DNA of 12,567 nucleotides from the NCBI GenBank assembly GCA_964510585.1, contig CAZECW010000045.1, positions 1 through 12,567 on the forward strand, read 5' to 3'. The notes under the pieces were generated by a model. That model made no database searches. It had not been told where the DNA came from and saw nothing but the letters and a program-made list of their open reading frames with translations. A program made the translations under genes and the position numbers. Of the stretch, positions 1-6,836 are shown piece by piece. The DNA comes from an uncultured archaeon (GTDB lineage Archaea > Asgardarchaeota > Jordiarchaeia > Jordiarchaeales > Jordiarchaeaceae). Position 1 is the first letter of the stretch. Every line of letters starts with the position of its first letter.

Positions 1-141
1 AGCGCACCGAGATGTGGCAGGGGCATTGAACATAGGTGCCGTCTATAACGGAGGGCACGTCAACTGGGCGATGGCACACCCATTGGAGGTTCAAATATGA
101 GCTTCCAAGAATCCCCCGACTTTAGTCGCGGGGAGTGTCAA
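1..141 (+). mobile_element. Right end of an IS200/IS605-family element (tnpB-carrying), truncated by window start
   Basis: TnpB-like C-terminus followed by GAAT (109-112), subterminal hairpin TCCCCCGAC-TTTA-GTCGCGGGGA (112-134) and terminal TCAA (138-141). This is the characteristic IS200/IS605 right-end layout. Confidence 0.9.
2..100 (+). CDS. tnpB: TnpB RNA-guided nuclease, 3' fragment (AHRDVAGALNIGAVYNGGHVNWAMAHPLEVQI*)
   Basis: Manual translation of frame 2 gives HRDxxxAxNI, the TnpB RuvC-III motif, with its Asp at 11-13 and TGA at 98-100, directly upstream of the IS right end. The 5' part lies outside the window. Confidence 0.88.
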   Translation, partial: AHRDVAGALNIGAVYNGGHVNWAMAHPLEVQI

Positions 142-161
142 AAAGCCGAAGAATGACACAC
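36..161 (+). ncRNA. Predicted TnpB reRNA/omegaRNA (scaffold about 36-141, guide from flanking DNA starting at 142)
   Basis: Stems 36-58, 61-68/79-85, 86-93/98-105 and 112-134. Loop TGGCAC (72-77) pairs with GTGTCA (135-140) as a pseudoknot. Both RNA boundaries are inferred, not observed. Confidence 0.7.
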
Positions 162-439
162 AATTAGGAATTTTCATTCACTGGGCTTCACGGTCTCATA
201 CGCCGCCTTCTCATAAGGGTCAATCTTCTCCCTCACCTTCCAAGGATACGTGGCTCTGCCTCTGCTCCAAAAATCGCCCAACTTGTATCTAGGTACAGTT
301 TCATCGCAACTATTTCTAAAAACTCTCCATTTTGGAACTGTTAGAGTGGTTTTAATTAAGCATTGAATTGTGTATTAATGATAGGAGAAGGGGGAAAATA
401 TTTAGGTTTATTCCCTAAAACTTCAAGTGGGAGCATCTT

Positions 440-4411: not shown

Positions 4412-5893
4412 CTACAGGTAGAACTTTCCTGGGCTAATAATCCTGTTAGGATCTAGGGCCTGTTTGATACTCTTAAGAAAAGAATAGTAAGCTCCATTGA
4501 AGGCCTCCGTATCTATTAAGCCCTTGCTGTATATTTCTCCCAACATGTAAGGCATGCCTCCCTCTCTTATGAGCATCTCGAGTTGGCTCTTCCAGAGTTC
4601 TAGGTTCTTCGCCCTATATTGCGGTTTGTCCCAAGCCAAAAGTCCAGCGTCAACTTCCACAGTAGTGTGTCCACAAAGAAGGGCGGTAGATATCCCGGAC
4701 TGCATCCCCCCATTGGCATCAAGCTCAGCCTTGTGCGCCGCTTCCCACTCATCAAGTTTATGAGCTATGTAGGGGAAACGGTGAATTGGAACATGGACTT
4801 CAGTTGTCAAGGGTATAGAGCCTGGCCCCATTCCACCCCATATGCCGTGGAAGGTTAGCCAGTGGCCCTGTTCTTCATAGTGCCACTTGGCATAGTTTCC
4901 ATCTTTAAGCTCTGGACCCAGCTCTGTGCAGCCATTCTCTTTACATATTCGGTCCACAATTTTAATATTTGCTTCCAGCTGTTCTTCTGTCTCTGCTTCC
5001 ATGGTGTAAAAGAACACAGCTTTCGTTAATCCTACCCACGGCTTTATTTGGGGCACATCTGTTAATAGCTGTGTGCCTAGAACCATTGTTAGTGTCCAAA
5101 GTTGTGAATCAAATATTCCAAGGTCTCCTCTCTTCCTCCACGCTAGCCAGATTTTGGCCGCGTTTTCCGGTGAGGGTTCCTCTATGGTAAAGGTCTTAGC
5201 CGCATGGTAGGGAGGTTTTGGGAAAATCTCCAAGGTGGCCTTGGTTTTGATCCCCAAAAGCCCATTGTCACCCAGAAATAGCCCAGTTAAATCCGGGCCG
5301 AAACCGAACCTGCAGAATGGCTCCTTGGTGTAGACGCTGGCGTTGGAGCCAGTGTTTATTATGTCTCCATTTGGCAGAACGACTTCTAGAGCCACGCAGT
5401 GCTGAGTGCATGTGCCGTATTTTGCTCCTCCGCCTCCTCCCACGCTGTGGTGTGAGAGGCCGCCTCCAACTACTGCGGATATTCCACTTCCCGGACCGAG
5501 GTTTCCAGTGTAGTAGCCCAACTCGTTGAGTTTGGAGTTAAGCTCTGCCCAGGTTATTCCTGTCTCAACGGTAACTGTAAGAGCGTTTTCGTCTATGTTT
5601 AATATTTTGTGCATTCTGGCGGTGTCCAGAACTATGCTTCCTTTCTCTATGGGCTTAGAGCCTCCCAGTAGGCAGCAACCTCCGCCGCGGGGAACTATGG
5701 GTATCTTGTACTTGTTGGCTATTTTTACTACTTCTGCTACTTCTTCGGCTGTTCCCGGTTTCACCACATAGTCTGGAGGGTTGGGAGGCAATGCGCTGTC
5801 TATGCCTCTTGCGTAGGCATAGGTTATGAAATCTTCGTCGGAAACGTATTCTGTACCCACCGCGTCCTGCAACAATTTTAGAACCTTACTCAT
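4412..5893 (-). CDS. FAD-binding oxidoreductase, VAO/PCMH fold (GlcD/Dld-like but atypical)
   Basis: PDYVVKP.TAEEV..VVK.AN.YKIPIVPRGGG, LEVVLPNG, DLTGLF.G..G.LGI.TKA and DPNRI.SPGK. RBS GAGGTG at 5899-5904. Confidence 0.93.
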   Translation of the reverse strand: MSKVLKLLQDAVGTEYVSDEDFITYAYARGIDSALPPNPPDYVVKPGTAEEVAEVVKIANKYKIPIVPRGGGCCLLGGSKPIEKGSIVLDTARMHKILNIDENALTVTVETGITWAELNSKLNELGYYTGNLGPGSGISAVVGGGLSHHSVGGGGGAKYGTCTQHCVALEVVLPNGDIINTGSNASVYTKEPFCRFGFGPDLTGLFLGDNGLLGIKTKATLEIFPKPPYHAAKTFTIEEPSPENAAKIWLAWRKRGDLGIFDSQLWTLTMVLGTQLLTDVPQIKPWVGLTKAVFFYTMEAETEEQLEANIKIVDRICKENGCTELGPELKDGNYAKWHYEEQGHWLTFHGIWGGMGPGSIPLTTEVHVPIHRFPYIAHKLDEWEAAHKAELDANGGMQSGISTALLCGHTTVEVDAGLLAWDKPQYRAKNLELWKSQLEMLIREGGMPYMLGEIYSKGLIDTEAFNGAYYSFLKSIKQALDPNRIISPGKFYL

Positions 5894-5957
5894 AATAGCA
5901 CCTCAAAAATCGCAGTGTTTTTTATTCCAAATGCAATAAATTTTGTATATGTTGATT

Positions 5958-6836
5958 CTAGCGTTTAGCCATGGGTATGCTTTTGAAGCCTCTGCATATT
6001 TCTGTTACTGCTTTCTCAACGGGTATTCTTTCAATGGATGAGGCTCCTACGAATCCTTGGGCGATAGTCTTCTCATATATGATTTTGGTGCTCTCCGGGT
6101 CATAGAATGGTCCTCCATGTATTAGGCAGATTACTTCAGGGTTTACTTTTCTTGCTGCTTCAAATATTTCCTGTGCCCTCTTAAGTAGGGTATCTAAATC
6201 TTCCAGTGCAGTAAACCCCGCTATGCCTCCCATTGTTGGTCCCACATGGGCGCATATCGCGTCTGCTCCGGCTTCGGCCATATCTTTTGAGTCTGCCGCA
6301 GTGAAGACGTAAGCCATGGTAAAAACGTCCCAATCATGTAGGATTTTTATCATTTCCACTTCTCTGGACCATCCCCAGTGGGCGACGCCGTATCCAAAGG
6401 CCATAGACTCGTTGAATTTTCTGAGGGCCATTCCTCCCTCTATTAGGTTCTCATAAAGTCCTGTTGTAGGAAAGTTTATCACTCCGTTGAATCCTTTGTT
6501 GAGGAAACGTTTTAGTAAGGCTTCTAGGTCGAGGCAGAAGCAGTCGTTGGCCTCCACGCCTGCGATTATGGGCTTGTTTTTAACAACGTTCGCTATTTCA
6601 TCATACATTTCTAGTGTTATGGGGTTTGAGTTCCCAATTATGGTAGTGGGTAGCCCCATCAATCTGGTTTTTCCCGTGCTGTAAATAATTATCAGGTCTG
6701 CTTGGCCGAGCTCAGCGCATTTTGCTATTATTCCGGCACTGCACCCTGCCCCCAGAATCGGTCTATTTTCGCTAATTTCTTTGTGGAGTCTATCAAGTAT
6801 TTCCTTTCTGGTTATTTTTACTACCATTTTACTCAT
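5958..6836 (-). CDS. TIM-barrel protein of the PEP-hydrolase-like / TIM-barrel signal transduction family (PF09370-like)
   Basis: GAGCSAGIIAKCAELG.ADLIIIY, GF.GV.NFPT.G, YVF, AGAD.I..H.G.T.GG, HGGP and GF.GASS.ERIP are family hallmarks. ATGA overlap with the upstream gene. Confidence 0.92.
   Translation of the reverse strand: MSKMVVKITRKEILDRLHKEISENRPILGAGCSAGIIAKCAELGQADLIIIYSTGKTRLMGLPTTIIGNSNPITLEMYDEIANVVKNKPIIAGVEANDCFCLDLEALLKRFLNKGFNGVINFPTTGLYENLIEGGMALRKFNESMAFGYGVAHWGWSREVEMIKILHDWDVFTMAYVFTAADSKDMAEAGADAICAHVGPTMGGIAGFTALEDLDTLLKRAQEIFEAARKVNPEVICLIHGGPFYDPESTKIIYEKTIAQGFVGASSIERIPVEKAVTEICRGFKSIPMAKR

Follow-up and report, generated by a model that had tools for sequence, protein, structure and literature searches.

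The first 141 bases of the window are very probably the cut-off right end (RE) of an IS608-like element of the IS200/IS605 group, carrying tnpA and tnpB, in an Asgard archaeon, where the tail of tnpB overlaps the scaffold of an omega-RNA (reRNA). The window is the whole stretch of DNA analysed here, 12,567 nucleotides, and corresponds to contig C45 of a 3.78 Mb assembly in 217 contigs. The system is of a known kind, an IS200/IS605 right end together with a TnpB omega-RNA, to which the window adds one more case. Frame 2 of positions 2-100 translates as AHRDVAGALNIGAVYNGGHVNWAMAHPLEVQI and then reaches the stop codon TGA (98-100). An earlier note on this DNA had proposed that the 3′ end of tnpB overlaps a structured scaffold extending to the right boundary of the element, that the stop codon falls in the third stem and that the catalytic Asp of RuvC-III is retained. 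All three proposals are borne out: the stop codon lies in the 3′ arm of that stem, the boundary lies at 141, and the Asp codon (Table 1) corresponds to a residue that is invariant in the 34 TnpB proteins aligned. In P0002, a close homologue, the corresponding residue lines up with the part of solved Cas12f chains that holds the RuvC-III Asp.

The boundary is defined by the other copies of the element in the same genome. A BLAST search of the whole genome with the first 200 bases of the window gave 95 matches, 71 of which span the scaffold. These 71 copies all terminate in ...GAGAGTGTCAA or ...GGGAGTGTCAA, and their right flanks are mutually unrelated. Because they share this end (...GTGTCAA) and diverge from the next base on, with no similarity from 142, the element ends at window position 141; the guide boundary claimed at 141/142 is therefore correct, as is the guide start at 142. 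The assembly breaks inside the repeated element, so that only its last 141 bases are found on contig C45. Many of the BLAST matches to the element lie 139-141 bases from contig ends, an offset that would correspond to the k-mer overlap of the assembler at a repeat, and the same overlap would explain why the window contig begins inside the element. Dozens of contigs start or stop 138-141 bases inside the repeat (e.g., C68, C153, C48, C74, and C2), and the IS/PATE family is therefore a main cause of the fragmentation into 217 contigs. The first flank base after TCAA in 77 right ends of this genome is A in 44, T in 18, C in 14 and G in 1 (raw counts regardless of base composition), and an insertion or retention bias is a possible source of this skew.

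Table 1. Features of the right end in the window and base-pair counts for the pseudoknot (pair counts on 89 distinct sequences from the final alignment of 90 right ends).
Feature	Position	Strand	Basis or remark
Last 32 codons of tnpB and stop	2-100	+	Frame 2, open at the contig edge; stop TGA 98-100
RuvC-III catalytic Asp codon GAT, motif AHRDVAGALNI	11-13	+	Invariant D365 in the 34-protein alignment
Stem-loop 1 (36-40/54-58 and 42-44/50-52)	36-58	+	Inside the coding region; 8/8 pairs changed on both sides
Stem 2 (65-68/79-82), 10-nt loop bearing the 5′ strand of the pseudoknot	65-82	+	Covariation in the final alignment
Pseudoknot 5′ strand UGGCA, supported core 73-76	72-76	+	Pair counts in the final alignment
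Stem-loop 3 (83-93/98-108), includes the tnpB stop codon	83-108	+	7/7 basal pairs (83-89/102-108) changed on both sides; MFE agrees
GAAT, probable TnpA guide tetranucleotide (GR)	109-112	+	Adjoins the right-end hairpin on its 5′ side; covariation with the final base of the element
Stem-loop 4 (112-120/125-134), UUUA tetraloop 121-124; also subterminal imperfect palindrome (IPR)	112-134	+	7/9 pairs changed on both sides
Pseudoknot 3′ strand UGUCA, supported core 136-139	136-140	+	Pair counts in the final alignment; geometry as in ISDra2; A141 is the unpaired -1 base
Right-end cleavage site TCAA, transposon end	138-141	+	71 copies ending ...GTGTCAA; IS608 precedent (PMC3201880)
Would-be guide flank AAAGCCGAAGAATGACACAC	142-161	+	Inferred from the boundary
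Pair 72-140	72, 140		UA 68, unpaired 21 (A.A in a distant clade); n = 89
Pair 73-139	73, 139		GC 87; n = 89
Pair 74-138	74, 138		GU 61, AU 25, GC 3, unpaired 0; n = 89
Pair 75-137	75, 137		CG 84, UG 3; n = 89
Pair 76-136	76, 136		AU 60, CG 20, GC 3, GU 2, unpaired 3; n = 89
Pair 77-135	77, 135		Unpaired 53; n = 89

The tail of TnpB in the window matches residues 364-395 of an intact 395-aa TnpB (locus L023, 62% identity) and differs in 2 of 32 residues from the C-terminus of another intact homologue, P0003 (393 aa). The window's subfamily comprises four right ends (C45, C54, C8, and C152), which are 98% identical and all situated at contig ends. The copy on C8 reaches 226 bases farther upstream and encodes 107 aa of TnpB, including the zinc finger (CPWC...CKQC) and the RuvC-III Asp (PF07282, 67 bits). 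A database search with this fragment led to P0003, which shares 95% identity with it and, compared by eye, is consistent with the N-terminal parts found on C169. A tblastn search of the genome with the L023 homologue recovered three left halves, on C7, C169 and C162, each consisting of TTAC followed by AAAACCGTTGGCGAGAAAG, a hairpin, tnpA and the N-terminus of tnpB before running off the contig end. The tnpA gene encodes a Y1 (HUH) TnpA (PF01797, 113-129 bits on the three contigs), each left half being a candidate partner of the window copy. Given three tnpA-tnpB left halves at contig ends, the parent is an IS608-like tnpA+tnpB element split over contig ends, and the tnpB joined to the window copy is consequently not assembled: it was sought in the assembly and not recovered, the additional 226 bases of C8 are unique, and TnpB residues ~207-307 (about 100) are on no contig of this assembly.

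The 32 codons present in the window are open and only two residues off the intact homologue, the 98% identity of the four right ends suggests recent copies, and the 141 tnpB codons assembled on C169 are uninterrupted. These observations argue against the window copy being a relic, that is, an intact right end preceded by a broken or deleted tnpB, whose scaffold would depend on TnpB provided in trans or have no function. A relic is nevertheless an alternative of some weight, if an unlikely one: the contig begins inside the element and its upstream part is out of view; one of the three left halves is frameshifted (C7 has a 2-nt deletion relative to C169, although the RuvC-I motif YVDLGV is still present); there are four right ends and only three left halves; copies in genomes of the same genus are mostly decayed or gene-less, the full copy (L019) being decayed; and most members of the family in this genome are gene-less mini-elements. 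The preferred reading remains the right end of an element with its own tnpB.

The family's TnpB carries PF01385 and PF07282 (RuvC with a zinc-finger insertion), both found in P0002 and precomputed for P0003-P0050, the window containing the last 32 residues only. The 34 aligned relatives all have D190 (RuvC-I), D365 (RuvC-III) and each of the four zinc-finger Cys. The position of the canonical RuvC-II Glu is occupied by an invariant Gly (G283 of P0003), and an alternative Glu, E331 (...VNERGTS...), located 48 residues after G283, is at least 90% conserved. Judged by these residues, the family TnpB is of the published rearranged RuvC-II type (RIIr branches, PMC10691335; “TnpB2”, PMC10530073), in which a Gly likewise replaces the canonical Glu and the alternative Glu lies ~45 residues downstream. 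This rearrangement has been described as compensated (PMC10691335). The alternative Glu is essential in a Fanzor, and the rearranged type is active in Fanzors and in the Thermoplasma volcanium TnpB (TvTnpB), which cuts DNA in a TAM-dependent manner (PMC10530073). By analogy with this published activity of the same type, the nuclease of the family is probably active. The missing canonical Glu could also indicate a nuclease-dead, RNA-guided repressor (TldR-like), but this is highly improbable in view of the invariant RuvC-I Asp, RuvC-III Asp and zinc finger, the conserved alternative Glu, the compensated and active precedents (PMC10691335; PMC10530073), and the mobility of the elements, which have tnpA and many recent copies. 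The earlier note had envisaged a RuvC-dead tnpB as an outcome that would overturn its reading; conservation of D190, D365 and E331 in the relatives speaks, at the level of sequence, against it. TvTnpB is likewise archaeal and IS605-type with TnpA, and its RNA was mapped at the RE. The TAM of TvTnpB is NTGAC, compared with an inferred TTAC for the window family.

The region 30-161 folds with a dG of -56.1 kcal/mol (z = -6.0, 200 dinucleotide shuffles). A covariance model of the right end (113 positions and 32 pairs, without the pseudoknot), built from 21 right ends, was searched against 151 Asgard genomes (33 with matches), genome-contig loci found through TnpB, and 79 metagenomic loci. At 52 of the 79 metagenomic tnpB loci (33-65% protein identity), the model matches on the tnpB strand and overlaps the 3′ end of the gene. 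A one-protein search of genome contigs yielded 10 loci, and the alignment-based metagenome scan was needed to reveal the covariation of the pseudoknot. In the final alignment of 90 right ends, with pairs counted on 89 distinct sequences, paired cells amount to 87.9% vs. 64.3% in shuffles, and the covariation score is 0.54, compared with 0.18 in shuffles and 0.07-0.11 in controls whose partners were shifted by 1-3 columns. Both sides have changed in 29 of the 38 pairs. These figures lean towards the four stems of the search model, to which the alignment was fitted; a plain MAFFT alignment already gave the same signal.

Covariation supports four stems: 36-44/50-58, 65-68/79-82, 83-93/98-108, and 112-120/125-134. 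The first and the last coincide with the stems claimed at 36-58 and 112-134, for which many compensatory changes are seen. The third had been placed at 86-93/98-105; compensatory changes confirm it and widen it to 83-93/98-108. The second had been drawn as 61-68/79-85, of which only the 4 bp 65-68/79-82 stand. Its lower part (61-63/83-85) is rejected, 83-85 covarying with 106-108 instead: in Heimdallarchaeum and Methanoxibalbensis, positions 83, 85 and 86 change jointly with 108, 106 and 105. What is left of stem 2 consists of two covarying pairs, 65-82 (UA 25, GC 18, GU 12, CG 7) and 68-79 (GC 59, CG 19), and two invariant G-C pairs. Mini-elements of subfamily B form the same stem-loop 1 from different sequence. 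The apical part of stem-loop 3 differs in length between subfamilies, some of which contain long insertions.

The overlap with the gene leaves traces in the protein. Base 65 is the first base of a Trp codon (TGG); all four bases occur there, and the residue is Trp, Gly or Arg. Its covarying partner, base 82, is a synonymous third position in a Pro codon. Gene-less copies retain these tail nucleotides without a reading frame. Because bases 65 and 82 change together and base 82 is synonymous, the conservation of the tail ...N-x-x-M/V-A-H-P-L is at least partly imposed by the RNA.

A pseudoknot of six pairs had been proposed between TGGCAC (72-77), in the loop of stem 2, and GTGTCA (135-140), just before the guide, and both motifs are where they were said to be. 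The pairing itself holds in part. Positions 73-76 and 136-139 are paired in 97-100% of the 89 sequences, with covariation only at 76-136; pair 77-135, which is C.A in most sequences and fails in 53 of 89, is rejected, and pair 72-140 fails in 21 of 89. The search model lacked the pseudoknot, and hence the alignment was not fitted to it. These counts support a core of 73-76/136-139, of 4-5 bp since 72-140 is added only in the window's own clade. Pair 76-136 switches by lineage, being C-G in a metagenomic clade and in the Asgard loci L087 and L091 and G-C in L101, L112 and L115, with mismatched intermediates in L043, L056 and L106. On this alignment the covariation is real but thin: it concerns one pair and few independent events, and there is otherwise hardly any variation in either strand. 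Since the 3′ strand coincides partly with the TnpA cleavage site, it would be conserved in any case, and the conservation of the 5′ strand comes partly from coding.

Since stem 2 covaries, any long-range pairing, if formed, must cross it, which would make it an H-type pseudoknot and not the nested helix of the MFE structure. The contrary proposal, that 72-77/135-140 is an ordinary long-range helix closing a multiloop, or a by-product of two independently conserved motifs, has to discount this strong covariation (65-82, 68-79), the three Watson-Crick forms of 76-136, and the behavior of base 76, a synonymous third position (GCA, Ala) that is A in 63 of 90 right ends and changes mainly along with 136. 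It can draw on the MFE fold, where the nested helix occurs without stem 2, on the lack of two-sided change in five of the six proposed pairs, on the disrupted pairing in L043, L056, L106 and L088, and on the separate constraints on the two strands from TnpA and from coding; taken together, it is improbable, and the short pseudoknot is preferred. Within 135-159, GTGTCA (135-140) and TGACAC (154-159) form a 6-bp inverted repeat linking the scaffold end with the would-be guide bases 13-18. It would compete with the pseudoknot if formed and is probably due to chance, as the flanks differ in every copy.

The resulting architecture resembles that of the ISDra2 omega-RNA, with which the window scaffold has no sequence similarity. 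In the cryo-EM structure of the latter, the loop of stem 1 is base-paired to positions -5 to -3, with two non-canonical pairs flanking these; -1A stays unpaired, and a UUUA tetraloop caps stem 4 at -20 to -17 (PMC10097598). Both scaffolds overlap the 3′ end of tnpB, stop at the RE, and combine four stems with a short pseudoknot, probable in the window RNA, that joins the bases 5′ of the guide to the loop of the first core stem. In the window RNA, positions -6 to -3 (and -2) would pair with the loop of stem 2, and A141 is position -1, an unpaired A in both. The UUUA tetraloop is on the last stem in both, here at 121-124 (-21 to -18). The differences are that the ISDra2 scaffold has 116 nt, compared with a core of 81 nt (61-141) in the window, or 106 nt with the extra 5′ hairpin; that the long-range stem 2 of ISDra2, which encloses stem 3, is absent in the window RNA; and that the TAM is TTGAT in ISDra2 and presumably TTAC in the window family. 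With an 81-nt core and one extra covarying 5′ hairpin, the length of about 106 nt (36-141) given in the earlier note is a fair minimal estimate. An Rfam scan of window positions 1-400 (E up to 10) matched no family, and the TnpB-associated RNA models RF03065 and RF02998 (named in PMC10055086) were without a match in the same region at the same threshold.

The ends of the element also bear the marks of its transposase. TTAC precedes 90 of 101 left ends, with position -5 and beyond variable, and insertion occurs 3′ of TTAC without target duplication, the right flanks being unrelated to the left flanks. Both ends have subterminal imperfect hairpins in place of inverted repeats, and a hairpin nearly identical to the right one is found 18-19 nt inside the left ends. 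The parent copies have 19 nt between TTAC and the foot of the left hairpin, with AAAG directly 5′ of that hairpin. In IS608, the left cleavage site (CL) is TTAC, its guide (GL) is AAAG and the right cleavage site (CR) is TCAA; guide and cleavage site pair, and TnpA requires only the hairpin, the 4 nt before the hairpin, and the cleavage site (PMC3201880). Among 48 right ends, GAAT occurs with TCAA in 26, and GAAC accompanies TCAG in 9 of the 10 TCAG cases (1-2-base alignment shifts read through). As read from the aligned ends, this covariation is the guide/cleavage-site pairing expected of this transposase family. The GR of IS608 is presumably GAAT.

The likeness to IS608, a tnpA+tnpB element of Helicobacter pylori, extends to TTAC as target and left cleavage site, the absence of target duplication, the right end TCAA, AAAG 5′ of the left hairpin and the 19 nt from its foot to TTAC (parent copies), the imperfect subterminal hairpins at both ends, each with a single bulged base, and a Y1 TnpA gene upstream of tnpB. 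TCAA follows the right hairpin after 10 nt in IS608 and after 3-4 nt in the window element. Unlike IS608, the window element resides in an Asgard archaeon, its TnpB has a rearranged RuvC-II, and it has about 70-90 gene-less derivatives.

Stem 4 (112-134) doubles as the subterminal hairpin bound by TnpA, and TCAA is where TnpA cleaves, so that conservation in this part has a second cause, at the DNA level. It could be argued that the entire conserved structure is only such a DNA signal (hairpin, guide and cleavage tetranucleotides) without a functional RNA, given that hairpin 112-134 recurs in the left end, that GAAT and TCAA covary according to the TnpA rule, and that TCAA overlaps the 3′ strand of the pseudoknot. 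However, stems 36-58, 65-82 and 83-108 are outside the IS608-type TnpA module and show compensatory changes in 18 of 23 pairs, the gene-less mini-elements keep all of these three stems, and the layout agrees with a solved omega-RNA, which makes a mere DNA signal extremely improbable. A scaffold RNA encoded by the same DNA remains the preferred reading.

The large subfamily in this genome consists of gene-less mini-elements of ~280 bp in about 65 or more copies, built of a left end and the same right end with a short internal region between them. Like the PATEs of Geobacillus and haloarchaea (PMC10055086), these copies keep both ends and the whole scaffold, and their stem 2, pseudoknot strands and last 7 bases are identical to those of the window copy. 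The window copy is not itself a PATE; it is one of only 4 right ends of the tnpB-bearing parent subfamily. Gene-less right ends almost identical to the window's subfamily also occur in a Hadesarchaea MAG, AUK037 (L048:1531-1643 and L049:1531-1643; 124.7 and 120.4 bits vs. 127.8 for the window); as this MAG belongs to another phylum, either a recent transfer among co-resident archaea or a binning error is indicated. Contig C81 carries, on its minus strand at ~5075-6800 (loci L012, L017, and L061), a second IS605-type element that is more distantly related. A 571-codon stop-to-stop frame there spans a tnpA remnant and tnpB, and the tnpB frame crosses the whole scaffold, which has a long insertion in stem 3, with the stop TGA directly after the terminal TCAA. 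Three more tnpB-like genes, at C204:1867-3012, C13:1536-2366 and C124:4421-4771, belong to unrelated subfamilies and have 3′ flanks unlike the window right end. Those on C204 (381 aa) and C13 retain the canonical RuvC-II Glu, and the gene on C124 is a fragment of 116 aa.

The right-end DNA would act in three forms. As a gene, it codes for the C-terminal tail of TnpB up to position 100. As RNA, it would provide the omega/reRNA scaffold, with stem-loops 36-58, 65-82, 83-108 and 112-134 and the short pseudoknot just before the guide. As single-stranded DNA, hairpin 112-134 together with GAAT and TCAA would constitute the recognition and cleavage module of TnpA. By analogy with the TnpBs of ISDra2, Geobacillus and Thermoplasma, a transcript through the RE may carry ~16-20 nt of flank from 142 as a guide and, once processed and bound by TnpB, could direct the nuclease to the donor joint beside TTAC that remains after excision of the copy by TnpA; cleavage there would allow the copy to be restored by recombination. 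A homing model with the donor joint as guide target has been described (PMC10055086). A search of the genome with the 20-nt guide flank, allowing up to 3 mismatches, gave no second match, and none of the near-matches of its first 16 nt in this genome follows TTAC. This is what the homing model would lead one to expect, the target being the donor joint (TTAC plus flank) that arises only after excision. In five genomes of the same genus the empty site (TTAC plus flank) was not found; divergence of the intergenic region leaves homology only from 140-300 bases downstream.

One stretch of DNA is thus subject to three overlapping constraints, from a protein, a guide RNA and a transposase signal, without a new principle being shown. 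A wider reading is tentative, its chances falling somewhat short of even: the scaffold may represent an RNA family outside Rfam that serves a thermophilic clade of archaeal TnpBs with a rearranged RuvC-II (Asgard, Hadarchaeota, Methanoxibalbensis, Archaeoglobaceae, and other MAGs), with the RNA fold dictating the sequence of the TnpB C-terminal tail, with a nuclease that is possibly compact, heat-stable and programmable, and with few nuclease copies possibly serving ~70-90 mobile guide cassettes in trans. If true, this would provide a compact programmable nuclease of ~390 aa with a scaffold of 81-106 nt and a 4-nt TAM, TTAC. With the tnpA+tnpB parent of the gene-less guide cassettes identified, the question of which nuclease these cassettes could use is now testable.
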